From: Leucoraja ocellata
Taxonomy: Eukaryota
DNA length: 64,000 nt
Direction: 5' to 3'
Assembly: GCA_036785375.1 (NCBI GenBank)
Contig: JAWMAR010000388.1
Span: 186,001 to 250,000 of the forward strand
Part shown: positions 6,303 to 62,325 of the stretch, piece by piece
How positions within the stretch are numbered: the first letter of the stretch is position 1
Layout of the letters: every line of letters starts with the position of its first letter
Translations under genes and position numbers: made by a program
The notes under the pieces: model-generated
Databases searched by the model: none
What the model was told of the DNA's origin: nothing
What the model saw: the letters and a program-made list of their open reading frames with translations, nothing else

Positions 6303-7337
6303 AAATATACAATAGGCGGGGGACACATGGATTGCATCATTGGTCGATTTGTAAATCGTCTGTGTGCTCTGGCTAAAGAACATGGAATCCAGACCCCACT
6401 GATCATCCCAGATATGTTTTACATTTTCACACATGCCTACATTATATCACCCAGTGACCTTCACGCAGATGCGTTCACTTCATGTACTCGGCTTCAGTGT
6501 GCAAAGGGAAACAATGTGGACACCTGTGGCCTTCGCTAAACTGGAAGATAATGAACATCCATTCAGTATTTTACTCTGTTTTATTCAGGTCACTATCTGT
6601 GTGGTGTGTGATTCACAATTACCTTATATCTCTGTGTCAGATAATCTCTAAACAGATTCCATACAGAATGTAAGAAACATTGATGCCCACTGTAAACATG
6701 AAAGGCAACCCAATCAAACACATTAACCGGGATATACATGATCAGAATTGATACTCCTGACAGTTTCACCAAAATGATGCAGCATGTAACCAATAAGATT
6801 AGTAGCTGGAAGTTTGCGAGATCTGTTGCTAGGTAGATTTTTATTTTGTTAGTTGTTATTCACCATCAGAGTTTTCAGTGTTTGAGCAGCAGAATGAAAG
6901 TGCCTCATTAATTTAGCAGCACAGTCGACACAGGTGTTTCCTTTCAGTTACATGGTGAGCTCTTGCCCATCATTCACAATGAAATGTTTTGTCTTCGGCC
7001 ACAGAAAATGTAGAAGATATATTCTGATTCGGCAGAATCTTAAATCCATTCATTCCTAATACTATTAGTCATTTTATCATTTATTCAATGCGCATTCTTA
7101 CGATAATAAGGACTATCTCTGCAGAGCCACATAAACACAAACAATTAGAGGGCAGTGTGAGGTGTTAATAAAGTTAATTTAATTTTCCCCACTTTGATGT
7201 AATGGACATGTAGTCTTGTAGAAGAAATGGGGAAGATGATCGATATGTTACCAAATTTAAATGAATTTGATATTACCTGGGCAGACAAAAGGTTACAGAT
7301 AAATTGCATGTGGGCCGTTCGATCACAGATTACAAGT

Positions 7338-7557
7338 TAGAAACTTAGAAATTAGGTGCAGGAGTAGGCCATTCGGCCCTTCAAGCCAGTACCACCATTC
7401 AATATGATCATTGCAGATCATCCAAAATCAGTACCAGCATTTTCTCCATATCCCTAGAATTTGTTAGCGCTAAGAGCTAAATCTAACTTTCTCTTGAAAA
7501 CATCCAGTGACTTGACCTCCACTGCCTCCTCTGGCAGAGAATCCCACAGATTCACAC
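7338..7557 (-). mobile_element. Old CR1 3' end; the same copy resumes at 21130
   Basis: Ends at …CACAGATTCACAC and resumes ACTCTCTAGGTGAAAA at 21130. Uninterrupted in duplicate copy 2 (24295-24325). Confidence 0.8.
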
Positions 7558-8430
7558 CTCTGATGAACAAAGAAATGGCAGATGAGTTGAACAGGTACTT
7601 TAGATCTGTCTTTACTAAGGAGGACACAAACAATCTTACTGATATAGTAGTGGCCAGAGGATCTGGGGTGATGGAGGAACTGAAGGAAATCCACATTAGG
7701 CAGGAAATGGTGTTGGGTAGACTGATGGGACTGAAGGCTGATAACTCCCCAGGGCCCGATGGTCTGCATCCCAGGGTACTTAAGGAAGTGGCTCTAGAAA
7801 TCGTAGATGCATTGGTGATAATTTTCAAATGTTCTTTAGACTCACGATCAGTTTCTGTTAATTGGAGGGTAGCTAATGTTATCCCATTTTTTAAGAAAAG
7901 CGGGAGAGAGAAAATAGGGAATTATTGACCAGTTAGCCTGACATCGGTGGTGGGGAAGATGCTGGAGTCAATTATAAAAGATGAGATAGCCGAACATTTG
8001 GATAGCAGTAACAGGATCGGTCCGAGTCAGCATGGATTTATGAAGGGGCAATCATGCTTGACAGATCTTCTGGAATTTTTTGAAGATGTAACTCGGAAAA
8101 TGGACAAGGGAGAGCCAGTGGATGTAGTGTACCTGAACTTTCAGAAAGCATTTGATAAGGTCCCACATAGGGAGATTAGTGGGCAAAATTAGGGCACATG
8201 GTATTGGGGGTAGAGTGCTGACATGGATAGAGAAATGGTTGGCAGAGAGGAAACAAAGAGTAGGGATTAACGGGGTCCCTTTCAGAATGGCAGGCAGTGA
8301 CTAGTGGGGTACCGCAAGGCTCGGTGCTGGGACCGCAGCTACTTACAATATACATCAATGATTTGGATGAAGGGATTCAAAGTAACATTAGCAAATTTCC
8401 AGATGACACAACGATGGGTGGCAGTGTGAA
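7558..8430 (+). mobile_element. CR1 LINE, 5' half of a copy split by the 8431-20241 insertion
   Basis: ORFs 7461-7928 and 7947-8192 (SPGPDGLHPRVLKE, QHGF). Breaks at GGCAGTGTGAA. Confidence 0.9.
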
Positions 8431-8929
8431 CCAAAGATACTAGAGGAGCAAGATAGACCACTCCTACGAAATCCAATGGGCTGACGTGTGGTACGGATCG
8501 GAACATCACGGAACGTCACTTCTGCCATTTTAGGAATAAGACCCCGATCCCCGTTCTGCCTCTCGCAGTTTAATCCACATCAGTCCATTGGATTTTGTAG
8601 TTTATCTTGGTCTCTTAGCCTTCCATGTTAGACCATTATTATCTTTGTTGATAATAAATAAGGTGCTCCTTTAAAAACAAAAATTAAAAAGGGAAACTGC
8701 GTATAAAATGAGCAACAATGCTCAATGAAAGCTCTCTGGACCATATGAATTCTATGATCTTTTGTTTAATCAGTGTTGTGGGGGAACGGTATGTGTGTGT
8801 TTCTGTGTGTGAGTGGCAAGATAGAGATAATATATTTCAAAGTTCCTCATGGACCAGAAGCAACTTTGATTTAAAGCAACTCATGATGTACATGAGCCAT
8901 TCTCATGAAGTACATAAGCCATAAAGACA

Positions 8930-9405
8930 ATTATATTCGCCTTTATATTTTTATATAAGATATAAGGAACATAAGCCATAAGCCAATATATTTGCCTATA
9001 TTTATATATTATAAACACATATATTATATACATGATACACAGATATATAAATGTGATATTGATGTATATAATTATATAAAACACATACATAATTCTCTAG
9101 TTTCTTATATATATATAAACACATTATATATATATATATATAATGAATATATGTTTATATATATATAAAGAAACTCGAGAAATATGTATGTGTGTGTTAT
9201 ATATTTATATACATATATATCACACATATATGCATCATATATATATACATATACATCACACATATATGCGCATCATATATATATATATATATGATGTGTG
9301 TATATATATGTGATGTATATGTATGTAAATATGATTCGTATATGTGTGATATATATGTATTTAAATATATAACACACACATATGTATGTTTCTCGAGTTT
9401 CTTTC
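8930..9405. repeat. (TA)n-rich low-complexity / microsatellite region
   Basis: Degenerate TA/TG/CA runs with a short flanking inverted repeat (AAGAAACTCGAGAAA / TTTCTCGAGTTTCTT). Confidence 0.9.
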
Positions 9406-11340
9406 TTGTGATCTAATTTTGTTGAACTTTTTTTTCATTCATTCAACCTCTCTGAAATCCTATCATTGTGAATAAAATAGTAAGATTAAACGAGAACTTA
9501 CCAGTTCGAAGTTTGATCTGTATTTTATGAGGAGTAACGTTGAGGGAATACATGAAGAACCCGCCAGTACGCATGCGTGTCATTGTTCAAAGCAGCAGTG
9601 TGAATCACAGATACCTGTAATGACTTAAGCATAGTAAGATTAGAGAAAAAGATACCAGTCGTGTTTATGATCAAGGGTGGGAGCGGAGGGCATGTATTCC
9701 CTCAACGTTACTCCTCATAAAATACAGATCAAACTTCGAACTGGTAAGTTCTCGTTTAATCTTACTATTTTACTTCGGAGTCACGTGCGTGACTACATGA
9801 AGATTTCAAAGCTCTGTGATTCAAGCCGTGGAACGAGTCCATCATCAAGTCTGCCTTGGTTATGGGGAGAATAGTGATAACATATTAAACATCAATATGA
9901 TATATATAAATAACCATAAAGTTAATAATAATTGATAGCCCCCGTTTTTTGGGGTATATTATGGTACAGAAACTTAACAATGTTTCTGAAAATTTCCTGT
10001 TTCCATTATTGGTTTGTTATAATCTTTAGAATGTTCTTTCCGATGGCCATCCTGCAGTCCTGAGGATTTTATCCATAGGAAAACCTCCAATTTAAATGCT
10101 GCCGACGTTGCTGCAGCCTGCTCGAGTGAGATTTTAACCAAGTTAGTGTGTACACCAACTTTGGTCAATACTATGTTAGCCATTTAGCTGGCCTGGCCTG
10201 TTATTCTTTAATGAGGCTGTCTGTAGTTGATGAGAAGTTCCTCTTCTGTGCCACTGATGGTCTTGGTTTGTTCCATGTATATTTGTAGATGTCTCACAAC
10301 AGTCAATCATCTGTAGGGTAGGCTCTAAAAATGTTATTTTAAGGCCTGCTCACCCCTGTCTGTTTAGTTCCCTAATTCCTGAATATAGAAGTGTAAGTTG
10401 CCAGGTGAACTGGTCTAGTTATCCAGCCTTAATTTGGTAGGGACTGAGTCCTTAGTGCCGTGACCTAAGCCATCAGCATGACAGTTTTGTAAAATGTCAA
10501 AAAACTGTAATGACAGCGCTGTGGCTGGAGCCCAGTTCTTTAACAACGTTAAGACGATGCTGATGTCCCATATTTGGGAATACCTGGTCTTTGGGGAATT
10601 CCCATAAAAGTGTCCCCCATAAGCTGTTGTCTTGCCATAGGTAAGTAGATGGACCACTTCTGGCACAGTTGATGTCACTAATACTAAGCGCCTGTAGGTT
10701 AACAAAGCTGCCAAACAGGCTGGATGATGTATTATGGTTGCAACACATCTCCAATTAGTTTATGTATTTTAGACATTGTCTTTAGGTTGATTGTCTGTGG
10801 CCCGCTGTGATCATGTCCATTGCTCTGGCCGTCAGTCCCAGATGTAATAGTGGCGCTTTCAGACTCTACGATTTATGCGATTTATATGTTCATGGCACGG
10901 GTGGTTTTCCCCATACTTCATCGTCTGTTTAGGATGGTGCTGCATGGTTCTAATCTCATTTCCAGTACCACCGAGAACCATGGTTGGGTAGGTCAGTGGG
11001 GTACTATTAAAACACCCCTACTGATGAGGTTGCCAAATTGTGTTGGCCAGATTGTTACATGATGTAGATTCCCTTTCACCCATGTGCTACCACAGTTGAT
11101 ATGTGCTACCACAGTAGTATTGTTAATTTATAATCTAATAACCTGTTTAACATATTCCAGAGCAACATGACTTTAGGCCATGAAAAAACACCCAACATTT
11201 CCAGGTAGTTATGCCCAGTGTTAGTAATAATGATGCTTCCTGTGTATTCCATCTTCCTCCACAGCTGGAGATGGAATTGGTAACACACCATCCTAGTGCA
11301 TAGCATGCATATGTAGGACCATAGACTGGTGAGGCAGTCA

Positions 11341-12074
11341 TACCCCACATCCATATAAACGGGACTGAGGTGGAGCGCATCTCCAGCTTTAAATTCCTCG
11401 GAGTACATATCTCGGAGGACTTGTCCTGGTCCCTCAACACCTCCAAGCTGATCAAGAAGGCACAGCAGCGCCTTTACTTCCTGAGGAGGCTCAGGAAAGC
11501 CCACCTGTCCCCCCAGATCCTGACCAACTTTTACTGCTGTACCATAGAGAGTATCCTGACCACCTGCTTCACGGTATGGTACAGCAGCTGCACTGCTGCG
11601 GACAGGAAGGCACTACAACGGGTGGTGAAAACCGCGCAGCACATCATCGGTGCCCTGCTCCCTGCCATGGATGCCCTCCACCGAAAACGGTGTCTGAGAT
11701 GGGCTGGGAAGATCATCAAGGACCCCTCACACCCCAACCATGGACTGTTTGCCCTCCTCCCATCAGGGAGGCGGTACAGGAGCCTCAGGTCACGTACTAG
11801 TAGGATGAGGAAAAGCTTCTACAACAACACAATCACACTGCTGAACTCGGAGTCCCGACGATAGATTTCTCTGGTCCCTCTGTCCCCTTTGTTTAATCAT
11901 TCTGTATTTCCTGATTATCCTGTATCTTCCCTCTTTCTATTTTTTTTGTTTTTTCTTGATGTACAACTACTACGGACTGACGCAAAACTGCATTTCGTGT
12001 ACTCATACTTGTATTTGTGCGAAGGCATTAAAGCTGAATTGAATTGAATTGAATTGAATAGAATTGAATTGAAT
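11341..12074 (+). mobile_element. 5'-truncated Rex1/Babar LINE nested in the DIRS element
   Basis: ORF 11370-11864 (FKFLGVHISEDLSW…KAQQRLYFLRRL…[10 protein letters not shown]); (TGAAT)n tail. Confidence 0.92.
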
Positions 12075-12825
12075 GGTTGCTGACAATGATAGGATTGGAG
12101 CAATGCCCAATGTTATCTTTCCACCATTTAGTTCCAATATGGCTTCTGTATGGCTTCATCATTCTATCGAAATGATCATCATTAATTTTAAGAGCTCATA
12201 TTTTGGCCCTCTGTAAATCTTTATAATGTAAGGGTCTGAATTATGTGGCTGGAACCCATATTCCCAGTACCACCTGTTGCCAAAATTCTTGCTACCAGTC
12301 TGATGGATGGTTTATCCCCATGTCAATGATTTTGCTGTATGCCTTTATTAAGGTTGTAACCTCTGTTGGCAAAGTTACTGACATGAGGAACTGAGTTATT
12401 GGTGAACCCCAAATAATCCCTTTAGTTTGAAGGCTTTAATTTTGATTTAATTGGATGGATAATGAATCCTAGTTTCCAAATAATTGTTAAAGGGCTGTTA
12501 CCGTTTGTTCAGCCCTTCTTAAGTTTCCGCACAATTAGTATGTCATCCAAAGAAGCCATTACCATTGTGTGGCTGGTTGTTATATTTTGTAAATAACCTA
12601 GGTGCTAATGTAAACACATTAGGTAGTGCTCTATACTGCTAGAGCTGAGCCATCCAATTAGATAAAATAACGTCCGTGGTCACCTGTTATGGGTACTGAA
12701 AATAGTAAGCATCCTTTGAATCAATGCTTGCCATTTTCGTTCTTAAAACGAATATACTTAACAATAGAAAAGGTTTCCGTTCTTAACGAATATATCGTAT
12801 TATTAATTTTATTTATTTATTTATT

Positions 12826-12923
12826 TTTAATATATGGTCCCTAGATAAGGGACATATCAGTTATTTAAACTGATAAGAACCCAGATATTATGCTTGATCT
12901 TGACCAAAAAGCCGAGATCTGAT
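12826..12923 (-). pseudogene. RNU2: 3'-truncated U2 snRNA retro-pseudogene
   Basis: Reverse complement ATCAGATCTCGGCTTTTTGGTCAAGATCAAGCATAATATCTGGGTTCTTATCAGTTTAAATAACTGATATGTCCCTTATCTAGGGACCATATATTAAA matches U2 nt ~1-97. It stops before the Sm site and is followed by an A-rich tail. Confidence 0.88.
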
Positions 12924-14129
12924 CTATGTTTGATGCGTCAAGCGCCATATCCTATTTTGTTAGGAAAGGAATGCGTAGATAATAATTCTTCCCTTACAAT
13001 GCAGCTAAAACCCATCCGTTGCTGATGTCCAGTGTCTGTATCCCATATGACATATTTGGTAATTGGTGATTATGTCTGGATACGAGTAGATCGGCATCTG
13101 GTGTTCCATATTGTGTAGAAACATCAGCAAATACTATAGCCCAATATCCATTTGGTGTTCTCCTCCAAATTCCTCTCTCGATATATCAGCTGGACTAGAA
13201 GATTATGTGTTATAAAATTCTATTGTGTATCCCCGGATACTGTTTAAGATATGAGTGTCAAAAAATTATTTATTCGATGTCTTCTCGCACCAACCTCCTT
13301 TCTTCCTCTGGTTTTACTGTTGTCATCTGGATCCCCGAGGCCGTGTGTTGTGGGTGTACACATCTTCAGATATAGGGGCGATACCTTTGAGGATGATGTT
13401 TGGACGTTTAGATGAGCTCCAATTTGGCTTCATTGTCCAATTCCTTGACCTTCTAGATTGGTCACCTCCAAATAAAAAAATTTTGCTCGGAGGTTTCGGG
13501 TTTACACAGGCCCGTGTCAATCCCGGTTGGATGTAACCAGATGCATAAATTGATTAGTTTAGTACACTCAGGGATTTACAATCCCCAGTGGCAAGTGACC
13601 GCTATGGTGTCAGCTAATGTTTTCCCCTGCAGTAGATAGAAAACATATGGTCTATGCTGGTTTCTAACCTGGTTTGTAGATCTTTCCCAGTTAGCTTTAC
13701 TCACAGCTGTACTGTTATTCCCCCTGAAACATAGACAGACATTCCCATGTGACTTCCCAGGTGGGAATGGAATTTGTCAGTAAATTTTTGGACTGCTAAA
13801 TCCTTCAGTCACAACATAAGTATTCCTGTATTTCTATCAGGAAAAGACCAATAATGCACTCTATGTACTTTGTGACTTAGAAAAAGCATCTCTTACATCT
13901 GTTTACCTGTCCAGGGTTTGCCCTAGACTTGACCCCAGCACTCTTCGGACAAAAGAGTCTACTGGAGGGAGAGAAGCATGATTATAGCCCTAAGAAAAGG
14001 TGCTGTATCCTTCTCCCTAAGTCTGTCTTTTCCTCCAGCACTTCCCTGTAATAGTAGAAGTGAGATACAGCCCTGTATAAGGTGCTGCTATGGGACTTAC
14101 CCACTCAAGGATTTGTTCTTCTTTTTTGG

Positions 14130-14600
14130 ACCTGCATCGCTGCAAACGCGGTATGTTCTCGCAGGTGCATGTCCCGCAGTGTCAACGCGTTGCAGTGCTC
14201 ACGGGCACTGAGTCCCCTGTAGTGCCGTTGGCCTGCAGTGCTCCAAAGCGCGGTGCAGTGCTCACGGCACTGAGCCGCCCGTAGTACCGTTAGCCTGCAG
14301 TGCTCCAACGCGGTTCAGTCCTCTCGGGGAGCTGGCCGCTCGCAACCGCAGGTATGGTGGTTTTGACACGGTGCAGTGCTCTGCACTGTGCCGCTCCTTT
14401 CCCACGTGGGCCTGCGGTGCTCCAACGCGGTTGAGTCCTCTAGGGGAGCTGGCCGCTCGCAACCGCAGGTATGGTGGTTTTAACGCGGTGCAGTGCTCCC
14501 CACTGTGCCGCTGCTTCCCCCTTGGGCCTGCTGTGCTCCAACGCGGTGCAGTCCTCTCGGGGAACTGGCCGCTCGCGACGCAGGCCCAGCAGCTCCAACG
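14130..14600. repeat. GC-rich tandem repeats (~120-bp period with shorter subunits) in the 5' region of the DIRS element
   Basis: 14290-14409 closely resembles 14410-14529; recurring GTGCTCCAACGCGG. Confidence 0.8.
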
Positions 14601-15452
14601 CGTACCCGGTGCTCACGGGCAACGACCGCTCGCTGCTATTTTTATTTCTCAGCCCCACGGACCCATGTAGCGCTCCTTACCCTGTAGGTCCTTGGGCTTT
14701 TCCGAATCGTCAGATTGACGGCTCCCGAGTGCTCCATCGGTTGTCGGCGACCCGTACCCTTGCTGGAGCTGAAGTCGCACCGGCTCCCGCCAAGGGAGAT
14801 TGTCGTGCCACCGGCCATTGCTGGCTGCCTGCTCCTATATAGCAGCTCTCCCCCGCCAGCTTTCCACAGCCTTCCTGTAAACAAAGGTAAGTACAAAAGA
14901 AACAAAGTTCTCTTACCTACTGTTGCAGGTTCCAAACCTGCCGTTTGGGAGGAACGTCCTTCCTTCCCCCAATGACTCGTTGCAATGCGTGTAGCAATAA
15001 TGATACGCATGCGTACTGGCGGGGTCTTCATGTAGTCACTCACGTGACTCCGAAGTAAAATATAAATGAACACATGCCAAGATATTTTTTCATTCTATAT
15101 TAGTAAAGTAATATAGTGTATACATACCTACATTGATGCAGAAGTGCGAGCATTAGACATGAAAACTGTGCATTGCTACCATAGTTTAGTTTTTAATTTA
15201 ACATATATTTGAGGGAAATTTACATATATTTGAGGGAAATGAGTTACCCTATTTCCTGGCAATGAAGACGCACCACCATTTGAGTTGCTAAATTTTGAAA
15301 AAAGGATGGCGGGACAGGATCGAGGGTTTGGTTTAGTCCAGGGGTCCGCAGCCTTTTTTGCACAGGGGCCAGGACCCTCCAGGACTAGTTGCAGTTCCCA
15401 GGTCACCTGCGAGCCCCGGGTCTAGCTGCAGTTCCCAGGTCACCTGCGAGCC

Positions 15453-17729
15453 TTCTGTGAGTTCTTCATTAGGATGGAGAGTGACATTGTTAATTCAGAA
15501 ACAATGGTTTTGAACTTAAAGAAAGGTAACTTTGAGGGTATGAGACGTGAATTGGCCAAGATTGACTGGCAATTAATTCTAAAAGGGTTGACGGTGGATA
15601 TGCAATGGAAGGCATTTAAAGACTGCATGGATGAACTACAAAAATTGTTCATCCCAGTTTGGCAAAAGAATAAATCAGGGAAGGTAGTGCATCCATGGAT
15701 AACAAGGGAAATCAGGGATAGTATCAAAGCAAAGGATGATGCGTACAAACTAGCCAGAAAAAGCAGCATACCGGAGGACTGGGAGAAATTCAGAGACCAG
15801 CAGAGGAGGACGAAGGGCTTAATTAGAAAAGGAAAAATGGATTATGAAAGAAAACTGGCAGTGAACATAAAATCTGACTGCAAAAGTTTTTATAGATATG
15901 TGAAAAGAAAGAGATTAGTTAAAACAAATGTAGGTCCCTTGCAGTCAGAAACAGGTGAGTTGATCATGGGGAACCAGGATATGGCGGACCAATTGAATAA
16001 CTACTTTGGTTCCGTCTTCACTAAGGAAGACATAAATGATCTGCAGAGGCCCGCGGGTCAAAGGAGGTGGAGGAATTGAGTGAAATCCAGGTTAGTCGGG
16101 AAGTGGTGTTGGGTAAATTGAATGGATTAAAGGCCGATAAATCCCCAGGGCCAGATAGGCTGCATCCCAGAGTACTTAAGGAAGTAGCTCCAGAAATAGT
16201 GGATGCATTAGTAATAATCTTTCAAAACTCCTTAGATTCTGGAGTAGTTCCAGAGGATTGGCGGGTAGCAAACGTAACCCCACTTTTTAAGAAGGGAGGG
16301 AGAGAGAAAACGGGGAATTACAGACCAGTTAGCCTAACATCGGTAGTGGGGAAACTGCTAGAGTCAGTTATTAAAGATGGGATAGCAGCACATTTGGAAA
16401 GTGGTGAAATCATTGGACAAAGTCAGCATGGATTTACGAAAGGTAAATCATGTCTGACGAATCTTATAGAATTTTTCGAGGATGTAACTAGTAGCGTGGA
16501 TAGGGGAGAACCAGTGGATGTGGTGTATCTGGACTTCCAGAAGGCTTTCGACAAGGTCCCACATAAGAGATTAGTATACAAACTTAAAGCACATGGCATT
16601 GGGGGTTCAGTATTGATGTGGATAGAGAACTGGCTGGCAAACAGGAAGCAAAGAGTAGGAGTAAACGGGTCCTTTTCACAATGGCAGGCAGTGACTAGTG
16701 GGGTACCGCAAGGCTCAGTACTGGGACCCCAGCTATTTACAATATATATTAATGATCTGGATGAGGGAATTGAAGGCAATATCTCCAAGTTTGCGGATGA
16801 CACTAAGCTGGGGGGCAGTGTTAGGTGTGAGGAGGATGCTAGGAGACTGCAAGGTGACTTGGATAGGCTGGGTGAGTGGGCAAATGTTTGGCAGATGCAG
16901 TTTAATGTGGATAAATGTGAGGTTATCCATTTTGGTGGCAGAAACGGGAAAGCAGATTATTATCTAAACGGTGGCCGATTGGGAAAGGGGGAGATGCAGC
17001 GAGACCTGGGTGTCATGGTACACCAGTCATTGAAGGTAGGCATGCAGGTGCAGCAGGCAGTAAAGAAAGCGAATGGCATGTTGGCTTTCATAGCAAGAGG
17101 ATTTGAGTATAGGAGCAGGGAGGTTCTACTGCAGTTGTATAGGGTCTTGGTGAGACCACACCTGGAGTATTGCGTGCAGTTTTGGTCTCCAAATCTGAGG
17201 AAGGACATTATTGCCATAGAGGGAGTGCAGAGAAGGTTCACCAGACTGATTCCTGGGATGTCAGGACTGTCTTATGAAGAAAGACTGGATAGACTTGGTT
17301 TATACTCTCTAGAGTTTAGGAGATTGAGAGGGGATCTTATAGAAACTTACAAAATTCTTAAGGGGTTGGACAGGCTAGATGCAGGAAGATTGTTTCCGAT
17401 GTTGGGGAAGTCCAGGACAAGGGGTCACAGCTTAAGGATATGGGGGAAATCCTTTAAAACCGAGATGAGGAGAACTTTTTTCACACAGAGAGTGGTGAAT
17501 CTCTGGAACTCTCTGCCACAGAGGGTAGTTGAGGCCAGTTCATTGGCTATATTTAAGAGGGAGTTAGATGTGGCCCTTGTGGCCAAGGGGATCAGAGGGT
17601 ATGGAGAAAAGGCAGGTACGGGATACTGAGTTGGATGATCAGCCATGATCATATTAAATGGCGGTGCAGGCTCGAAGTAGCCCGAATGGCCTACTCCTGC
17701 ACCTAATTTCTATGTTTCTATGTTTCTAT
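15453..17729 (+). mobile_element. Young 5'-truncated CR1 LINE
   Basis: ORFs 15474-16079 and 16067-17629; (TTTCTATG)n tail; short TSD GAGCC at 15448-15452 and 17730-17734. Confidence 0.95.
16067..17629 (+). CDS. CR1 ORF2 reverse transcriptase domain (open to the native stop, 5' truncated)
   Basis: KSPGPD, NYRPVSLTS, QHGF, GVPQGSVLGP and FADD motifs. Confidence 0.85.
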   Translation: MEELSEIQVSREVVLGKLNGLKADKSPGPDRLHPRVLKEVAPEIVDALVIIFQNSLDSGVVPEDWRVANVTPLFKKGGREKTGNYRPVSLTSVVGKLLESVIKDGIAAHLESGEIIGQSQHGFTKGKSCLTNLIEFFEDVTSSVDRGEPVDVVYLDFQKAFDKVPHKRLVYKLKAHGIGGSVLMWIENWLANRKQRVGVNGSFSQWQAVTSGVPQGSVLGPQLFTIYINDLDEGIEGNISKFADDTKLGGSVRCEEDARRLQGDLDRLGEWANVWQMQFNVDKCEVIHFGGRNGKADYYLNGGRLGKGEMQRDLGVMVHQSLKVGMQVQQAVKKANGMLAFIARGFEYRSREVLLQLYRVLVRPHLEYCVQFWSPNLRKDIIAIEGVQRRFTRLIPGMSGLSYEERLDRLGLYSLEFRRLRGDLIETYKILKGLDRLDAGRLFPMLGKSRTRGHSLRIWGKSFKTEMRRTFFTQRVVNLWNSLPQRVVEASSLAIFKRELDVALVAKGIRGYGEKAGTGY

Positions 17730-18820
17730 GAGCCCTGGGTCTAGCTGCAGTTCCCAGGTCACCTGCGAGCCCCGGGTCTAGCTGCAGTTCCCAGGTCACC
17801 TGCGAGCCCCGGGTCTAGCTGCGGTTCCACTGTCCGGGCCCGGCAGCCACCCGAACTCTGAGTGAATTTTTAAATGTGAATATCTCATAACTAAACATTT
17901 GTGGGTTAGCAGTATATTGCATCAAGCCACTCAATTTTAAATCATTCTACAACAAAATTCATAAACAAGGATAACACTTTTTATTTCTGTCATTAATGGT
18001 AAGATTTACATAATTTATTGTTTTATGTGTGAGATATACAGAGTGTTCAGAACAAAGACGGCAGTTCTTTGACAAGTACTCCATAGTTCGCTGTAGGAGA
18101 TCTTATCAACGAGTATTCTGGACCCACTGTCAACATCTGAAATTACAGTAACATATCATATAGAATTAACATAAGAACAAATCTGATTATAACTACATAA
18201 CTGCAGAATGGATGATATGTCACTTAAATGCAATTGTTTTCAGGGGTGGGGAGAGACATGTATATTGAAGATGCATTTTTCCTCTAGTAGGTCAATTTAT
18301 GCCTACTGAATAAAGTCTGTATTCATGCCTATATTCTGTTGTGCTGAAGCAAAGCAAGAATTTCATTGTCCTATCTGGGATGACATGACAATAAACTCTC
18401 TTGGCTTGATTTGACTTGATTTAACTTAAATGTAGAAGAGCTTACAATACCATGCCTGCCTTACGACAAGAACAAAACCAAAAATGTACAGCAGTGTAAA
18501 AATTGATACCCTTATTATTGTTTAATATGAACTGCAGATGCTGGAAAATCGAAGGTAGACAAAAATGCTGGAGAAATTCTTATGGAGCTAGAGCATTTTT
18601 GTCTACCTTTGTTATTGTGCTAAGTCTATATCTATAAAAGAAGACTTTCTAATAACTTGCTCATGTACCAAAAAATGTCTTATATAATATAATACATTGT
18701 CAGGATCATAAGAATAGAATGATATATGTTACGGTCATCATACATTGGGAAGGAAATTAAGGCGTTAATGTGTGTTCCTCGTGGCTTGTCGTTGTTCCCT
18801 ACAACACCATTTATCATGTA

Positions 18821-19556
18821 CCAGACTGTGGGACCCGTTGGGTCCCAGCATCACACGGGAGGGCCGGTCACCAACGCAATATTCCACATCTCCACCAATT
18901 CCAATACTGCTCGCCAGTGGGGGGGTGGGGGGGGGGCTGTCTGTTGCGCTAGTATGTTAGGTGTTGCGGGCCGAAGGCACTGGTTTCCAGAGGGCTAGTA
19001 TAGACATTGTGGGCCGTATGGATGCTTGAGCAGGCATCCAACTGTTGCAACGATTTTAAAAGCCAAGCCAAGGCAAACAATTGGGCTGCAGACACCCGAC
19101 AACCAAAATTCATTTTGTGAACACAAACTTGTCAAAAAGGCGAGGCAAACAATTGGGCTGCAGACACACGACAACCAAAATTCATTTTGCGAACACAAAC
19201 TTGTTAAAAAAGGCTGCAGCCACTTTAAAGTCGCATCGAGGGGACTCACCGTGGAGTAGACGTGTGTTCAGTGTTATTCGCAGCTCAGAGAGCCGTGACC
19301 ATCTCGCTTCCTGGTCTGGCAGAGACTGAATGAGGCACGACACGCCAGCGGGGGCAGCAGAGAGAATGGGGAATTTTGTAAAAACATTAATATCTCTCTC
19401 ATTTTTCATCGACGGAAAAAATCCTCCGCACTCATATGGCAGAGCGGGGCTCTGAGCGAGGTGGCCAAAAATGACGGCCGTAGGTGGCGGCGTTCTCTCA
19501 GAAATCGCAGCACAGTTGGCCAAAAGCGGTCAAGATCAGAGATTTAGTAATATAGA
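18821..19556 (-). mobile_element. Non-autonomous Helitron
   Basis: Minus strand starts A|TC and ends CTGG|T (CTRR). Subterminal hairpin GGGACCC-GTT-GGGTCCC (18830-18846). No TSD; the flanks rejoin as CCATTTATCATGTA|TTTT, a unit of the adjacent repeat. Confidence 0.8.
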
Positions 19557-20241
19557 TTTTAAACACCATTGATCCGTGTACATTGTGTATATTTAACCAT
19601 TTATCATGTATTTTGAACACCATTAATCCGTGTACGTTGTGTATATTTAACCATTTATCCTGTATTTTAAACACTATTTCAAACCTGCTTAAACACAAGC
19701 CGATTCGGGATCTCCGCGGCTAGGAGGTCCCGAATTGGCCGCCTCCTACTGGAGACCGGGGCTTCATGATGTTGTAGGCCGCGGGCCGGCGATCGGAGCT
19801 TTTCTCCGGTGAGGGATCCTAGACTCCGCGAGAAAAAGTGCACGCTGCCCCCGCGACTAGAAGCTCCACACACCACGGCTTCAGGGTGTTATAGTCTGCG
19901 GGCCAGCGATCAGAGCAATTCTTCTGGTGACCCCCGGCTCCGCGATCTGAGCTATAGGAAGAGATCGGCCTCAAGACAGAAAGTTATAATTTTTTTCTTA
20001 CCTTTTGTCTTTAGTGGGGAATCTGAAGAAAGACTGCTAAAATGTGCTCGAATCGCTTACATTTACTATAGCAGAACAGCTCGCTACGCTGGTAGATGTG
20101 GACGCCATGATAGAAGCCCATTTAAATAAAACGCTCATATATATGATTCTCAAAATGGCGTGCAAAAAATTACCCATGAGCCTATGACCGTACTACAGCT
20201 TTTTCGTCGAGTGGTTTATCTTGCTCCTCTATAATCTTTGG

Positions 20242-21129
20242 TGTGAACTGTGAGGAGGATGCTATGACAATGCAAGGTGACTTGGACAGGTTGGGTGAGT
20301 GGGCAGATGCATGGCAGATTAAGTTTAAAGTGGATAAATGTGAGGTTATTCACTTTGGTAGCAAAAACAGGAAGGCAGATTACTATCTAAATGGCGTCAA
20401 GTTGGGAAAAGGGGAAGTACAATGGGATCGGGGGTCTTTGTACATCAGCCTATGAAAGTAAGCATGCAGGTACAGCAGGCAGTGAAGAAAACAAATGGCA
20501 TGTTGGCCTTAATAACAAGAGGAATCGAATATTGGAGCAAAGAGGTCCTTCTGCAGTTGTACAGAGCCCTAGTGAGACCACACATGGAGCATTGTGTGCA
20601 GTTTTGGTCCCCTAATTTGAGGAATGACATTCTTGCTATTGAGGGAGTGCAACGTAGGTTTACAAGGTAATTCCTGGGATGGCGAGATTGTCATATGCTG
20701 AGAGAATGGAGCAGCTGGGCTTGTACACTCTGGAGTTTAGAAGGATGAGAAGATATCTCATTGAAACATATAAGATTGTTAAGGTTTTGGACACGCTAAA
20801 GGCAGGAAACATGTTCCTGATGTTGGGGGAGTCCGGAGTCCAGGGGCCACAGTTTAAGAATGAGTAAGCCATTTAGAACGGAGACGAGGAAACACTTTTT
20901 CTCACAGAGAGTGGTGAGTCTGTGGAATTCTCTGCCTCAGAGCGCGGTGGAGGCGGGTTCTCTGGATGCTTTCAAGAGAGAGGGCTCTTAAAAATAGCGG
21001 AGTCAGGGGATATGGGGAGAAGGCAGGAACGGGGTAATGATTGGGGATGATCAGCCATGATCACTTTGAATGGCGGTGCTGGCTCGAAGGGCTGAATGGC
21101 CTACTGCACCTATTGTCTATTGTCTATTG
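20242..21129 (+). mobile_element. CR1 LINE, 3' half of the copy starting at 7558
   Basis: Resumes TGTGAACTGTGAGGAGGATGC; (ATTGTCT)n tail. Confidence 0.9.
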
Positions 21130-22255
21130 ACTCTCTAGGTGAAAACGTTTTTCCTCATCTCATTCCTAAATGGCCTATCCCTGAATCTTAAACAGTGAGC
21201 CTGGTTTTGGACTCCCCCAACATCGGGACCATCATGCTTGCATCTACCCTGTCCAATGCTCTAATAATTTATGTTTGTATAAGATGCCCTCTCATCCTAC
21301 TAAATTCCAGCAAATTCAAGTCCAATCTACGCATTCTTTCATCATACGTCAGTCCTGTCATCCCAGGAATTAACCTGGTGAACCTACGCTGCACTCACTC
21401 AATAGCAATAATGTCCTTCCTCAAATTAGGGGATCTAAATGGCACACAATACTCCAGGTGCGGTCTCACCAGGGCTCTGTACAACTGCAGTAGAACCTCT
21501 AAACTCAAATCATCTCACTATGAAGACCAACATGCTATTTGCTTTCTTCACTGTTTACTGTACCTGCATGCTCACTTTCAGCACAGCCAGGTCTCGTTGC
21601 ACCTCCCCTTCTCATAATCTTGACGCCATTCAGGTAATAATCTGCCTTCTTGTTTGTGCCACCAAAGTGGATAACCTCACATTAATCCACATTATACAGC
21701 ACTGCCATGCTTCTTCCCACTCAACTAACCTATACGTCACCCCGCAGTCTCATAGAATCTTCCTCGCAGCCCACACTGCCACCCAGCATTGTGTCACCTG
21801 CAAACTTATTGTTACATTTCATTCCATCGTCTAAAGCGTTAATATATATTGTGAACAATGGGGGTCCTTGCAGCGATCCTTGCGGCACCCCACTAGTCAC
21901 GGCCTGCCAGTAGATCCCCGCTCCCATAGTTTTTCCGGGGAGATTGTTTGTGTCGTCCTTAGTGAAGACAAAACTGAAGTACTCGTTTAACTGGTCTGCC
22001 ATTTCATGTTTCTCATTATAAATTCACCTGTTTCTGACTGTAACGGACCTATATTTGCCTTCACTAATCTCTTCCTCTTCACATATCTTAAAAGGTTTTT
22101 ACAGTCAGTTATTAAATTCTCTGCAAGCTTTCTTTCATGCTCTATTTCCCCCCCCCCCCCCCCCCCCACCCTTTTGTCCTCCTCTGTTGAATTCTAAATG
22201 TCTCCCAGTCCTCCGGTTTGCTGCTTTCTCTGGCCAATTTCTATGCCTCTATTAG
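21130..22255 (-). mobile_element. Old CR1, continuation of 7338-7557, with an internal deletion near 21910
   Basis: Antisense ORFs ([11 protein letters not shown]; [19 protein letters not shown]). Confidence 0.85.
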
Positions 22256-33423: not shown

Positions 33424-34530
33424 TATTGAATTGAATCCTTTATTTGTCATTCAGACCTTTCGGCCTGAACGAAATGTTGTTGCCTGCAGCCATACATGTA
33501 ATAATAACAACACACAATAAACACAAATTAATATGCACCACAGTGAGTTCACCAAGCACCTCCTCACTGTGATGGAGACAAAAGTCTTAGAGTTACTGTC
33601 TCTTCCCTCCTCTTCTCCCTCTGCGCTGAGGCGATACCCCACCGGGCGATGGTAAGTCAGTCCCACGGTTCAAGCTCCGCGGCCCGGGGGCGGTCGAAGC
33701 TGCCGCCTTCCAGTCCAGCGGACGCAGCTGTTGCCACGGGAGCTCCGGAAAACAGGCATCAACCTGTGACCCGCGAGCTCCCGACGATGTCGTCCACTGA
33801 CCCGCGGCTGAGCCCCGGATTCAGGTCACCGCCGCCAGAACGCTGCCTCAGCCACCGGAGCACCGTCTCCACCCCGCACCGGGCTGCCCCCACGGGAGCG
33901 CCTTCCAGCCCCGCACCGGGTTGCCCCCACGGGAGCACCTTCCAGCCGGGAGCCGGGCTGCCCCCACGGAGCGCCTTCCAGCCGGGAGCCGGGCTGCCCC
34001 CACGGGAGCGCCTTCCAGCCGGGAGCCGGGCTGCCCCCACGGGAGCGCCTTCCAACCGGGAGCCGGGCCGCCCACACCGGAGCACCTTCCAGCCGGGACC
34101 CAGGCCGCCCTCACAGGAGCGCCTTCCAGCCGGTAGCTGCGCCGCCCGCACGGGAGTGTCTCAGCCCCGCGCCGTCCGCCCTCACCGGAGCGCCGAGTCG
34201 TGCCGCTGCCCGAACGCCGCCGCAGCTCGAACACGGCCAGCCTCGCTGGTTCTACCTCTGGATCCTCGAGGTTGGTCACAGGTTGGAGGCCGCCAGCTCC
34301 GCCATTAGGCCTCAGCTCAGGCGGGGGAAGAGAAGGGGGATACGACAAAAAAGTCGCATTCCCCCGAAGGGAGAAACAGAAAGCCCTGTTTCACCCCCCC
34401 CCCCCCACACACATAACACCACCTAATAACCAAAAATGTAACTGAACTAGACAAAAAAACAACACAAAAAAGTAAAAACAGACAGACTGCAGGCGAGCCG
34501 CAGCCGTTTCACAGCACCGCCACTTCTGGA
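33424..34530 (-). mobile_element. Non-autonomous GC-rich retroposon with a Rex1-type tail and an internal 37-bp minisatellite, inserted in a decayed Penelope element
   Basis: Minus-strand 3' end CATTTCGTTCAGGCCGAAAGGTCTGAATGACAAATAAAGG(ATTCA)n. About 7 copies of CCGGGCTGCCCCCACGGGAGCGCCTTCCAGCCGGGAG at ~33880-34135. Confidence 0.7.
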
Positions 34531-39829: not shown

Positions 39830-42800
39830 TTTACAATCCCGGAGGCCCGGGACCGTTGGAGAGTGTGGAGGAGGGTCAGGGCGGTGAGTACTTAAATCGG
39901 GCGCGGGGCTTTATTTCACAGAGGCCCGGGACCGTTGGAGAGTGTGGAGGAGGGTCAGGGCTTTTACCAAAATCCGTAACGTTCCACACTCCATAGGGAG
40001 GGTTCTGGTGGAAGCCACTGATTGGTGGAAGCAGACTAGGGGAAGCAGCTAATTGGGTGCAACCTCAGGTTAGCATTTGTGCTTTCTGGTTAAAGGTACA
40101 GTGCTTTAGTAAAGGTACAGTGAGCCAAGGGTACAGTGGGCTAAAGGTACAGTGCTTTAGTAAAGGTACAGTGAGCCAAGGGTACAGTGAGCGAAGGGTA
40201 CAGTGCTTTAGTAAAGGTACAGTGAGCCAAGGGTGCAGTGGGTTAAAGGTACAGTGCTTTAGTAAAGGTACAGTGAGCCAAGGGTACAGTGGGCTAAAGG
40301 TACAGTGCTTTTTGTTTATATAATAAAGGTGCAGTTTAAAGGTCAAGAGGGAGCAGCTGTTGTGAGTCAGATACCTGCTGATTCCTCCCAGCAGTTTCTA
40401 TTGTATTATACTGGTATCGGATCCAGGGTAAGGCGGGAGAATGACAGCCAGATCAGTGTACTGTTCTGGATGTCAGATGTGGGAGGTCATGGTGTCGGAT
40501 GGCCCTCCAGATGTCCACATCTGCACCAGGTGCAGAGAGATGGGGCTCCTAAGGGACCGTATTAGGATCCTGGAGCAGCAGCTCGATGACCTCTGTCTGA
40601 TCAGGGAGAGTGAGGAGGTCATAGAGGGGAGTTATAGGGAGGTGGTCACTCCAAAACCACGGGAGAGAGACATGTGGGTCACACTAAGGAAGTGCAAGGG
40701 GCAGAGGCAGGAACGAGTGAGTACTCCAATGTCGGTACACCTCGCAAATAAGTACTCCTGTTTGAGTACAGATGGGGGTGACAGCCTACCCGGGGGTAGC
40801 GACAGCGGACGGGCCTCCAGCACAGAGACCAGCCCTGTTGCTCTGAAAGGTAGGGAAAAAAAGAGGGCAATAGTAATTGGGGACTCTATTGTTAGGGGGT
40901 CGGATAGGCGATTCTGTGGACGCAGTCGGGAGACCAGGATGGTGGTCTGCCTCCCTGGTGCCAAGGTCTCGGACGTGTCTCAACGCATCCAAGATATCCT
41001 GAAATCAGAGAGAGAGGAGCCTGAGGTCGTGGTACATATAGGTACCAATGACATAGGTAAAAAAAGGGAAGAGGTCCTGAAGGGAGGATTTAGGGATTTT
41101 TGAGGAGAGTTAAGGAAAAGGACCAAAAAGGTAACAATCTCAGGATTACTGCCTGTACCATGCGACAGTGAGAGTAGGAATGGAGCGAGGTGGAGGATAA
41201 ATGCGTGGCTGAAAGACTGGTGCAGAGGGCAGGGATTCAAGTTTCTGGATCATTGGGACTTCTTTTGGGGAAGGTGGGACCTGTACAGAAAGGATGGGTT
41301 GCACTTGAACCCGAGGGGGACCAATATCCTGGCGGGGAAATTTGCAAAGGCTACTGGGGATAAGTCTCCAGGTCCTGACAGGATATTCCCTAGGACATTG
41401 AGGGAAGTTAGTGTAGAAATAGCCGGGGCTATGACAGAAATATTTCAAATGTCATTAGAAACGGGAATAGTCCCCGAGGATTGGCGTACTGCGCATGTTG
41501 TTCCATTGTTTAAAAAGGGTTCTAAGAGTAAACCTAGCAATTATAGACATGTTAGTTTGACATCAGTGGTGGGCAAATTAATGGAAAAGATACTTAGAGA
41601 TAATATATATAAGCATCTGGATAAACAGGGTCTGATTAGGAACAGTCAACATGGATTTGTGCCTGGAAGGTCATGTTTGACTAATCTTCTTGAATTTTTT
41701 GAAGAGGTTACTAGGGAAATTGACGAGGGTAAAGCAGTGGATGATGTCTATATGGACTTTAGTAAGGCTTTTGACAAGGTTCCTCATGGAAGGTTGGTTA
41801 AGAAGGTTCAACTGTTGGGTATAAATGCAGGAATAGCAAGATGGATTCAACAGTGGCTGAATGGGAGAAGCCAGAGGGTAATGGTGGATGGCTGTTTATC
41901 GGGTTGGAGGCAAGTGACTGGTGGGGTGCCTCAGGGATCTGTGTTGGGTCCTTTGTTGTTTGTCATGTACATCAATGATCTGGATGAAGGTGTGGTAAAT
42001 TGGATTAGTAAGTATGCAGATGATACCAAGATAGGGGGTGTTGTGGATAATGAAGAGGATTTCCAAAGTCTACAGAGTGATTTAGGCCATTTGGAAAAAT
42101 GGGCTGAAAGATGGCAGATGGAGTATAATGCTGATAAATGTGAGGTGCTACACCTTGGCAGGACAAATCAAAATAGGACGTGCATGGTAAATGGTAGGGA
42201 ATTGAAGAATACAGTTGAACAGAGGGATCTGGGTATAACCGTGCATAGTTCCTTGAAGGTGGAATCTCATATAGATAAGGTGGTAAAGAAAGCTTTTGGT
42301 ATGCTAGTATTTATAAATCAGAGCATTGAGTATAGAAGTTGGGATGTAATGTTAAAATTGTACAAGGCATTTGTGAGGCCAATTCTGGAGTATGGTGTAC
42401 AATTTTAGTCGCCTAATTATAGGAAGGATGTCAACAAAATAGAGAGAGTACAGAGGAGATTTACTAGAATGTTGCCTGGGTTTCAGCAACTCAGTTACAG
42501 AAATAGGTTGAATAAGTTAGGTCTCTATTCTCTGGAGCGCAGAAGGTTAAGGGGGGACCTGATAGAGGTCTTTAAAATGATGAGAGGGATAGACAGAGTT
42601 GATCTGGACAAGCTTTTCCCTTTGAGAATAGGGAAGATTCAAACAAGAGGACATGACTTCAGAATTAAGGGACAGAAGTTTAGGGGTAACATGAGGGGGA
42701 ACTTCTTTACTCAGAGAGTGGTAGCTGTGTGGAATGAGCTTCCAGTGGAAGTGGTGGAGGCAGGTTCGTTGGTATCATTTAAAAATAAATTGGATAGGCA

Positions 42801-43882: not shown

Positions 43883-44018
43883 TAACCAGTCTAAAGAAGG
43901 GTTTCCGCCTGAAACGTTGCCTATTTCCTTCGCTCCATAGATGCTACCTCACCCGCTGAGTTTCTCCAGCACTTTTGTCTACCTTCAATTCTCCAGCATC
44001 TGCAGTCTCTTCTTGAAC
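43883..44018 (+). mobile_element. ~135-bp Penelope-pLTR-derived mini-element with a degenerate hammerhead-like core
   Basis: 11-bp TSD ACCAAAGTGAT at 43872-43882 and 44019-44029; similar to 62191-62325. Confidence 0.75.
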
Positions 44019-44756
44019 ACCAAAGTGATGAGATCAGTTGATAATGTTTATTCAGAATTTTCAAATACTTGTATTTTTTGTATATTTGTTGCACAAAAAG
44101 TGGCGCAGCCCAGATCCGGTAGTGGAACTGAGAAAATATGTGACCTTAACCCAACTTGCCAACACGGATAACTTTATTCTGGACTGCTACAGTCTCTGTA
44201 GGATTAATTCAGTTTTTAGTGAAGTCTGAAATAAATATAGATGCGCCCTCGTGCTTTAGAGTCAGCAGCAATTTGGGGTGTAATTATTGTTGACATAGTG
44301 CAGCATATGAAGTGGATAGGTGCTTGAAACACATTGTGTAATGCACCGGAAGTATTTAGACAGGCATATGGATATGCAGAGAGTGGCGGGATGTGAATCA
44401 TTTGCACGTAGGTGAGATTGGTTTATCTTGGCATTATATTTTGTAGAGAGATTGTGAATTGAAAGGCATGTAACTACAGTACATTTCTATGGGCTATATA
44501 GTGTCTTTGCAAGACTATTGTGGAGTGAGTACAGAAGGCTGAGGCAGATTGTGATTTAAGCAAATACAGACGTTGGGCTCGACAGATGGATACGTGTTTC
44601 AATATAAAGTATGGAAACGTAAGGCCTAACGTGACATAGAATTGTGCTTCAGAACATGGTACTATAGTTAATTTATTTTTTTAGTTTAGTGATTCAAAAT
44701 ATCATATAAATAAATACAGCCCATAAACAATGACGTTGCCTATTATAGTAGATATA

Positions 44757-54458: not shown

Positions 54459-54879
54459 NNNNNNNNNNNNNNNNNNNNNNNNNNNNNNNNNNNNNNNNNN
54501 NNNNNNNNNNNNNNNNNNNNNNNNNNNNNNNNNNNNNNNNNNNNNNNNNNNNNNNNNNNNNNNNNNNNNNNNNNNNNNNNNNNNNNNNNNNNNNNNNNNN
54601 NNNNNNNNNNNNNNNNNNNNNNNNNNNNNNNNNNNNNNNNNNNNNNNNNNNNNNNNNNNNNNNNNNNNNNNNNNNNNNNNNNNNNNNNNNNNNNNNNNNN
54701 NNNNNNNNNNNNNNNNNNNNNNNNNNNNNNNNNNNNNNNNNNNNNNNNNNNNNNNNNNNNNNNNNNNNNNNNNNNNNNNNNNNNNNNNNNNNNNNNNNNN
54801 NNNNNNNNNNNNNNNNNNNNNNNNNNNNNNNNNNNNNNNNNNNNNNNNNNNNNNNNNNNNNNNNNNNNNNNNNNNNNNN
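54459..54879. other. Assembly gap (N run)
   Basis: Run of n. Confidence 1.
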
Positions 54880-62190: not shown

Positions 62191-62325
62191 CACCCGTCTG
62201 AAGAAGGGTTTCGGCCCGAAACGTTGCCCTTTTCCTTCGCTCCGTAAATGTTGCTGCACCCGCTGAGTTTCTCCAGCTTTTTTGTGTACCTTCGATTTTC
62301 CAGCATCTGCAGTTCCTTCTTGAAC
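62191..62325 (+). mobile_element. ~135-bp Penelope-pLTR-derived mini-element with a hammerhead-like core
   Basis: CTGAAGA-A-GGGT(TTCG)GCCC-GAAAC at 62198-62222. TSD ACAG[C/T]GATACA at 62180-62190 and 62326-62336. Confidence 0.75.

Follow-up and report, generated by a model that had tools for sequence, protein, structure and literature searches.

The element located at 8432-20240 of the window (the whole 64-kb stretch of Leucoraja ocellata DNA analyzed here) is probably an internally deleted, non-autonomous transposon of the P superfamily, which splits a CR1 LINE and whose nested insertions were probably acquired in place. The insertion is real and ordinary, being a relic of a known kind of DNA transposon without coding capacity of its own. 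Nested insertions at its present site likely enlarged it from ~3 kb to 11.8 kb. Its superfamily had been considered unassignable in the initial annotation; the 8-bp target site duplication (TSD), the CA...TG ends and the relic of a P-lineage THAP domain lead us to classify it as a P-superfamily derivative.

Element ends and target site duplication

Twelve symmetric end positions were tested and four of them showed a flanking repeat, of 2, 4, 6, and 8 bp. The longest is GTGTGAAC, which is identical at 8424-8431 and 20241-20248 (plus strand), and therefore the element was delimited as 8432-20240 (11,809 bp) with CAAAG...CTTTG ends; this parse was picked as the longest repeat, on a single copy of the element. 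A clean 6-bp TSD with CCAAAG ends, as annotated previously, is not the longest repeat: the 6-bp parse, as well as the 4-bp one, is spurious because the target starts with GT and finishes with AC, which is palindromic, and the superfamily puzzle arose because the TSD was parsed as 6 bp.

The left terminal inverted repeat (TIR; 8432-8470, plus strand), which is the 3' end relative to the P gene, starts with CAAAG and has a 32-bp core with weaker similarity up to ~39 bp. The right TIR (20202-20240, minus strand), corresponding to the 5' end of the P element, was identified by BLAST, motif search and its ungapped match to the left TIR. The matching TIRs reported at both ends were confirmed: 29 of the 32 terminal bases are identical without gaps, and BLAST aligned the pair with 88% identity over 42 columns. 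Furthermore, a 23-nt TIR motif shows two matches in the window compared to none in 100 shuffles, with no matches in prokaryotic genome contigs, and the TIR alignment reaches a score of 53, whereas the best of up to 20,000 random 40-mers taken from the window scored 21. The CA...TG ends follow the terminal rule of the P superfamily. No exact 10-mers, nor 12-mers with one mismatch, were common to both ends as subterminal inverted repeats beyond the TIR; decay could mask such repeats. When the window was scanned for pairs of TIRs flanked by 8-bp TSDs, 29 candidates emerged, of which only 8432-20240 was DNA-transposon-like, the remaining ones resembling CR1-pair, TA-tract, DIRS-end or chance matches.

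The CR1 element split by the insertion

The 5' half of the host CR1 LINE (7565-8423, plus strand) is decayed and spans from the RT region to the insertion. It was delimited by blastn, with 76-79% identity to four other CR1 copies, and by tblastn with an intact CR1 ORF, which revealed stops and frameshifts. The 3' half (20249-21127, plus strand) was identified by in-register blastn and by trees. The uninterrupted CR1 at 15971-17721 aligns in register with both flanks (78.0 and 76.9%), as do three further CR1 copies at the junction. The two flanks are collinear parts of a single CR1, as the rejoining of the outer flanks had indicated in the initial annotation. Separate trees for each half, in which no close relative spans the junction, place both halves within one 100/100 clade and outside the 41k/52k family, an agreement at the level of the clade rather than the subfamily. 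Within this clade their placement differs: the left half is unresolved beside the nested CR1 and the right half groups with four other copies at 85/90.

Nested insertions

The presence of a DIRS, a CR1 and a Helitron inside the element was corroborated: together they account for 8.6 kb, leaving ~3.1-3.2 kb, in agreement with the residue first described (~3 kb once they are removed). Each of these large nested elements has its own insertion signature and splits a recognizable unit. The DIRS-type retrotransposon (9473-15062, minus strand) shows inverted termini and an internal complementary region (9691-9803), which matches the termini at 82 of 82 and 37 of 38 positions. Its coding frames are decayed and Pfam found no families in any of the three minus-strand frames, so the DIRS label is based on this structure and on what we take, by eye, to be RT/YR-like motifs. 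Two sequences are found within the DIRS: a 3' fragment from another type of LINE, with a (TGAAT)n tail (11325-12074, plus strand), presumably of Rex/L2-type, which contains a 179-aa ORF with PF09004 and matches 49003-49489, within an RT ORF, at 75%; and a U2 snRNA-derived sequence (12811-12923, minus strand; Rfam RF00004, 67.9 bits).

The nested CR1 (15453-17729, plus strand) is 5'-truncated, has a 529-aa open RT frame (PF00078, E=7e-34) and a 5-bp TSD, GAGCC, lies in a 37-bp tandem array, and matches four other copies in the window at 91-94%. The non-autonomous Helitron (18821-19556, minus strand), called with criteria taken from excerpts of PMC8969392, shows a 5' TC, a 3' CTGG and a subterminal hairpin, is located between A and T, and splits a 54-bp tandem repeat in intron 1 of the transposase relic described below. 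The same intron holds a dispersed-repeat fragment with a local fold-back (18519-18616, plus strand), recognized by its hairpin and by two similar copies, one near 44.0 kb (87%) and the other near 62.3 kb (94%).

Mismatches are fewer between the DIRS internal complementary region and its termini (1/120) than between the TIRs (3/32; Fisher p=0.03), which suggests that the DIRS arrived after the P element, although this is weak dating, as P TIRs can be natively imperfect and gene conversion could homogenize close inverted repeats. Imperfection of 6-8 mismatches is given for the TIRs of Anopheles P3/P4 in excerpts of the published work. The same dating points weakly against the movement of all 11.8 kb as one unit.

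THAP exon relics and the transposase lineage

Contrary to the initial statement that the cargo had no recognizable transposase, two THAP exons were found within the intervals listed there as cargo. The exon 1 relic (20002-20108, minus strand) has an ATG at 20108, one stop and a phase-2 GT donor; it shows 56% identity to P0005, the Priapulus protein XP_014671368 (alignment A1), and an E-value of 5e-4 in tblastn with XP_032889417. The exon 2 relic (18043-18136, minus strand) has a TTTCAG acceptor and three stops in 32 codons, and tblastn in the window gave identities of 66-78% to its closest matches with E-values down to 7e-12, those to skate and Priapulus proteins being 72-78%. The THAP match covers 32 + 36 codons. 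P0005 shows 72% identity over exon 2 and the same first seven residues of exon 1, and several matches have the same R-C junction as their starting point, which fits an intron common to them. Using exon 2 as query, phmmer gave 16 matches, 14 of them with Pfam THAP. No Pfam THAP was detected in either of the two exon pieces alone, a word-seeded homologue search with exon 2 gave no candidates, and a PDB sequence search with exon 2 gave chance matches only. The segment 18155-18015 was also considered as a last exon in another frame, with a nuclease-like tail, and was dropped when the overlapping frame matched THAP.

The exon relics are tied to the P catalytic domain through relatives rather than through the window itself. 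P0005 carries PF12017, runs into the P-transposase HTH and overlaps P0022 with 59 of 68 identical residues; P0022, in which the P RNase H and GBD domains are present, aligns with the Drosophila P transposase 6P5A at an E-value of 3e-43. The skate protein XP_055522325 shows the same THAP and the beginning of the P HTH stretch. A similar N-terminus and an exon 2 with 62-78% identity are found in XP_032889417 (Amblyraja), XP_055500197, XP_055522325 and XP_055488319 (Leucoraja), and the Priapulus XP_014671368; the likeness of these skate and Priapulus models is one of protein sequence, and databases name them THAP/52-kDa-repressor-like or TRIM-like, not transposons. Furthermore, the Leucoraja model P0015 matches intron DNA at 18298-18230, the gene-model match reaches upstream DNA too, and the identical protein has three accessions on three Leucoraja contigs.

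The ~1.36 kb net between 20240 and 18043 belongs to the element itself and comprises its 5' end, exon 1, the intron and exon 2. At 18043, a putative deletion breakpoint, the similarity to THAP ends sharply. A tblastn with 123 P proteins and a profile found only the two THAP exons, with the rest being low-complexity or chance matches outside the element; the catalytic region (RNase H and GTP-binding) was absent from the residual interior and no 3' transposase remnant was found beside the left TIR. The missing catalytic domain is as expected of a deleted copy, and therefore the element was filed as non-autonomous. Two origins had been offered initially: the deleted element with later nested insertions is the better supported, while Pack-like cargo is refuted for the right ~1.36 kb net.

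The rest of the interior contains three segments: 8628-9472, which contains a palindrome of 216 bp (9177-9392) as well as a TA-rich tract, and 15063-15452, which finishes in the 37-bp tandem repeats, neither with a P-transposase match; and 17730-18042, with the rest of the 37-bp array and further DNA up to the edge of THAP homology. The stretch from 18042 to 8628, 1.54 kb net, showed no donor within the window and no P-transposase match.

Proposed history of the element

Judging from its relatives, the autonomous ancestor would have contained THAP exon 1, an intron of ~1 kb, exon 2, the HTH and the RNase H/GTP-binding region. The sequence from just past the THAP CxxH motif (18043) through the catalytic region has been lost, perhaps by gap repair. 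Internal deletions by gap repair are part of Drosophila P biology. P transposase supplied in trans by another copy would then have bound the ends and excised the ~3-kb unit, joining them to a GT....AC site in the RT region of the CR1 with an 8-nt stagger; the duplication is observed, and the enzyme is proposed from excerpts of PMC7776569. Finally, the Helitron, the younger CR1, the small repeat fragment and the DIRS (holding the LINE fragment and U2) landed inside; the nesting is observed, and their arrival would have followed that of the element at this site.

The left fold-back unit and alternative origins

The left end forms a 196-bp fold-back unit (8432-8627), the inner arm of which (8576-8627) repeats the left end in inverted and decayed form. 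The arms 8464-8488 and 8576-8600 are complementary at 22 of 25 positions, and the folding z is -5.3, a value that none of 200 shuffles equalled. The resemblance of the inner arm to the left end extends over ~50 nt and includes a 25-nt stretch absent from the right end, and no such arm was found at the right end. The MITE-like unit described at this end is a real fold-back; the outermost ~18 nt of its inner arm match the TIR poorly, with 6 nt missing.

Since the left fold-back is real, a hybrid-end origin for the ~1.5-kb interior has to be weighed, and we consider it unlikely, although it is the leading alternative. According to it, a truncated P 5' end (20240-18043) and the outer end of a 196-bp P-MITE (8432-8627) would have mobilized the intervening ~1.5 kb of host DNA, perhaps at a time when some of the nested elements were already present. 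The extent of the left-end copy and the halt of THAP homology at 18043, followed by DNA without P-transposase match up to 8628, speak for such a composite. Paired ends from two nearby elements are known for P. Excerpts of published work also document them for Ac/Ds, and describe P-MITEs with 8-bp TSDs in Anopheles. However, besides the poor fit of the inner arm to the TIR, inverted duplication is common in this interior, with two other local fold-backs at 9177-9392 and 18545-18616, and copies of Galileo, of the P superfamily, duplicate their own ends in inverted orientation according to excerpts of PMC3573991. The window showed neither a donor locus nor a second copy.

A THAP-bearing hAT element instead of a P element is very unlikely. 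Several matches are named "52 kDa repressor...-like", a protein which we take to be THAP12, hAT-derived. hAT elements also make 8-bp TSDs, as found here, and a GT..AC target preference is indicated for Hermes and hobo in excerpts of PMC2577343. However, none of the 16 phmmer matches has a hAT domain and the closest ones of sufficient length run into the P HTH stretch, a decision which concerns nearest neighbours only; moreover, the TIR of 32-39 bp compares with 10-25 bp for hAT and 27-32 bp for P.

Highly improbable is the initial annotation taken literally, an unclassified superfamily with CCAAAG ends, a 6-bp TSD and non-transposon cargo: the 6-bp parse formally fits the sequence, but it is shorter than the longest of the four nested parses, leaves two extra matching positions to chance and ignores the P-lineage THAP exons. 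Polinton/Maverick elements, which have a 6-bp TSD and are described in excerpts as 15-40 kb long with TIRs of hundreds of bases and their own protein set, were rejected, as the TIR is below 40 bp and the ORFs listed for 7000-21500 include none of these proteins. An assembly artefact fusing unrelated repeats is the least credible, for although repeats make up nearly the whole window and two N gaps are present (1824-1967 and 54459-54879), both gaps lie outside the element, which contains no N, has an exact TSD and a CR1 in register, and holds nested elements that split recognizable units.

Comparison with known P elements

P elements make 8-bp TSDs and favour a palindromic GTCCGGAC core, according to excerpts of PMC7776569 and PMC2577343; excerpts of PMC12973397 and PMC4455052 contained no table of TSDs. 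Drosophila melanogaster P also has an N-terminal THAP in a spliced gene, a ~31-bp TIR, an 8-bp TSD, a GT....AC target core and asymmetric subterminal ends, and the relatives of the relics match 6P5A. In contrast, the catalytic region is gone here, no 11-bp internal inverted repeats were found, the ATR/WAT flanks of the 14-bp target motif are unmatched at this one site, and the element is four times longer because of nesting. Internally deleted copies of the zebrafish P-like element (THAP9/Pdre) are likewise non-autonomous vertebrate P derivatives with TIRs and an 8-bp TSD, although excerpts of PMC7776569 give them 13-bp TIRs and 12-bp subterminal repeats, whereas here the TIR is 32-39 bp without a common subterminal repeat. 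Anopheles gambiae P elements and P-MITEs, as described in excerpts, share mismatched TIRs of 27-32 bp, the 8-bp TSD and MITE derivatives, but the 196-bp unit is known here from a single site and not as a free MITE family. Non-autonomous Galileo copies also show inverted duplication of end sequence; however, excerpts of PMC3573991 give Galileo a TSD of 7 bp and TIRs with a mean length of hundreds of bases, while here the duplicated arm is found at one end and is separated from its partner by 87 bp.

Biological meaning

No paper on P elements in skates was found among literature listings and abstract openings, in part accessible, with Repbase, Dfam and most subscription journals outside this search; a first description is not claimed. 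For annotation, the locus illustrates that an 8-bp P/hAT TSD looks like one of 6 or 4 bp when its GT....AC target is palindromic, and that a misparsed TSD can hint at a new superfamily where none exists. It is also a tidy record of nested transposition, and the TIR sequence, tied here to a P-type THAP gene, provides a probe for an autonomous partner. A wider reading, which we regard as doubtful, is that a P lineage common to skates, hagfish, pipefish and a priapulid, possibly through horizontal transfer, forms hybrid-end composites in a cartilaginous fish and donates THAP exons to host genes (e.g., a TRIM); taken jointly, a truncated P 5' end and a P-MITE end would carry host DNA and retroelements as a unit of up to 11.8 kb. 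If the composite origin were true, this locus would exemplify the mobilization of host DNA by P ends in a vertebrate.

Element ends, target-site duplication and host CR1

Matching terminal inverted repeats (TIRs), as proposed in the initial annotation, are found at both ends: 29 of the first 32 left-end bases agree with the right end in reverse complement, and BLAST aligns the pair with 88% identity over 42 columns. For a 23-nt TIR motif, the window has two matches and 100 shuffles have none. Flanking repeats were detected at four of the 12 symmetric end positions tested, with lengths of 2, 4 (GTGA), 6 (TGTGAA) and 8 bp (GTGTGAAC). These parses are nested because the target starts with GT and ends with AC, so that outer target bases can be counted as TIR, and all four lead to an identical empty site. 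The clean 6-bp target-site duplication (TSD) with CCAAAG ends reported at first is one of these parses; the longest gives an 11,809-bp element (8432-20240), with ends CAAAG...CTTTG and no N inside, and by this longest parse at a single copy the TSD is probably 8 bp. In Table 1 of PMC2577343, P (ATRGTCCGGACWAT), Hermes and hobo all have 8-bp TSDs with GT....AC cores, so the junction points to P or hAT rather than to an unknown 6-bp superfamily.

When aligned to the unbroken CR1 at 15971-17721, the two outer flanks keep its register (78.0% and 76.9%), as they do with other CR1 copies, which confirms that they rejoin into a continuous CR1. Separate trees place both halves in one 100/100 clade, and both show 80-83% identity to an identical reference set; this subfamily check is valid at family level only, because the junction is not crossed by any close member of the subfamily.

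THAP transposase relic

The interior, previously described as cargo with no recognisable transposase, contains two THAP exons on the minus strand. Exon 1 starts with an ATG at 20108 and ends after 107 nt in a GT donor, and exon 2 follows a TTTCAG acceptor at 18137 in matching phase. Pfam gave no match in either exon piece alone and a word-seeded protein search found nothing; a full phmmer scan of exon 2 against 1.84 billion proteins gave 16 matches: 14 carry Pfam THAP, none carries a hAT domain, and of the other two one appears THAP-like and one is unrelated. Over 32 codons, exon 2 shows 78% identity to Amblyraja XP_032889417 and to Leucoraja XP_055500197, and 72% to Priapulus caudatus XP_014671368 (P0005). 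Judged by the best matches, the host would be skate-like. Exon 1 is alignable to the proteins matched by exon 2 and has its first seven residues in common with P0005, which continues into the P-transposase HTH (PF12017). P0005 overlaps the database protein P0022 with 59 of 68 residues identical, and P0022 shows P RNase H and GTP-binding domains and matches Drosophila P transposase 6P5A (E=3e-43). Furthermore, P0015, a Leucoraja model on three contigs, aligns with translated intron DNA (18298-18230) and gives a weak match upstream of the exon 1 ATG. These exon, intron and upstream matches show the right-hand 1.36 kb, not counting insertions, to be the 5' end of the element itself. THAP homology ends at 18043, directly past the CxxH motif, and no catalytic remnant was found in the interior with 123 P proteins and their profile; the element is non-autonomous.

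In Leucoraja erinacea, P-lineage THAP and linker sequences are also found within larger models, P0009/P0019/P0029 (XP_055522325, XP_055522324) and P0020 (XP_055500197), joined to a TRIM-like B-box/coiled-coil or to another long coiled-coil-like protein; in the cluster member P0030 the TRIM part is combined with another N-terminus. Such joined models could be fusions of host and transposase sequence, or artefacts of annotation. P0005 and P0020 are identical at 136 of 199 residues (68%), linker beyond the THAP included, and close relatives are also found in hagfish and pipefish. This identity is high for a priapulid-vertebrate pair and is a hint of either horizontal transfer or contamination; no paper naming Priapulus was among the literature matches listed.

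Left fold-back

The left end was proposed to be a MITE-like unit with a decayed inner TIR. The region 8432-8627 folds far more strongly than its shuffles (z = -5.3), and its inner arm (8576-8627) is a copy of the left end, including 25 nt absent from the right end; the TIR part of the proposal holds less well, as the outermost ~18 nt of the arm match poorly and 6 nt are missing. The fold-back could be a MITE built from a pair of 3' ends, or the end of the family may contain an inverted duplication like the one reported for Galileo (PMC3573991). A composite, with host DNA taken up between the 5' end of a P element and the end of a MITE, is improbable but conceivable, since ~1.54 kb net, from 18042 to 8628, is unassigned. 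Two more local fold-backs are present in the interior; one of them, at 9177-9392, is a 216-bp TA-rich palindrome with 108-nt arms, 85% complementary, with no spacer and with non-repetitive outer arms.

Nested elements

A DIRS-type element occupies 9473-15062 (minus strand), with an internal complementary region (9691-9803) that agrees with the termini in 82/82 and 37/38 bases, in the layout described in PMC8969392 and PMC7192593. Its coding frames are heavily decayed (Pfam matched 0 of 3), yet 119 of 120 bases agree between the internal region and the termini, which suggests recent movement in trans as a non-autonomous element, or conversion. Inside it lie a LINE 3' fragment (11325-12074) and a U2 snRNA-derived sequence (12811-12923, minus strand; Rfam 67.9 bits). 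A nested CR1 (15453-17729), with a 529-aa RT frame and a 5-bp TSD, lies inside a 37-bp tandem array. Intron 1 has a 54-bp repeat that is interrupted by a 736-bp Helitron (18821-19556), which begins with TC, ends with CTGG, has a hairpin and lies between A and T. A dispersed-repeat fragment of ~98 bp (18519-18616) is SINE-like and ends in its own inverted copy, with further copies near 43958-44019 and 62265-62315. Without the three large insertions the element measures 3,201 bp, in agreement with the ~3 kb first estimated, and 3,103 bp without the ~98-bp fragment as well.

Remainder of the window

A LINE ORF with RT (41104-42405, plus strand) shows an N-terminal weak match to GDSL lipase/esterase (PF13472, E=3e-6, below cut-off), and a related copy is located at 51409-53457. 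The segments 50196-51409 and 53564-53996 are probably another CR1, broken by a LINE with a 683-aa RT-bearing frame near the RT position at which the host CR1 is split. GC-rich tandem arrays of 37-bp and 51-bp units are found at 33853-34156 and 40091-40311, and the sequence has gaps of N at 1824-1967 and at 54459-54879. A scan of 22 long ORFs outside the element revealed no recognisable host gene.

Order of events and classification

The internal deletion of the element presumably originated by gap repair. The ends, the duplication, the split in the CR1, the THAP relic, the missing catalytic region and the nesting are directly observed. Beyond them, a P transposase acting in trans would have mobilised the element, cutting at the TIRs and integrating with an 8-nt stagger, as PMC7776569 describes for P transposase. 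The element would then have grown in place through nested insertions, an order inferred from parsimony and weak clocks: the DIRS ends depart from their template at 1 of 120 bases and the two TIRs from each other at 3 of 32 (p=0.03), and the nested CR1 is nearly intact (at most 93.5% identical to other copies), the host CR1 broken (at most 88.6%). Against this order, P TIRs may be imperfect from the outset (PMC1562414), the DIRS ends could have been homogenised by conversion, and subterminal inverted repeats were looked for in the element and not found.

The superfamily, at first considered unassignable, is narrowed to P or hAT by the 8-bp GT....AC junction, and the THAP relic inside is of the P lineage. 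hAT would suit the TSD, but neither the TIR length nor the protein lineage, as judged by nearest neighbours, agrees with it. Among P-superfamily features, the TSD, TIR and THAP lineage are present, whereas there is no catalytic domain and no subterminal repeat could be detected. No description of skate P elements was found in the literature matches, with Repbase and Dfam outside this search. The element is a real, ordinary nested transposon which functions in the manner of, and on the features tested is grouped with, non-autonomous P-superfamily elements such as the deleted zebrafish copies.
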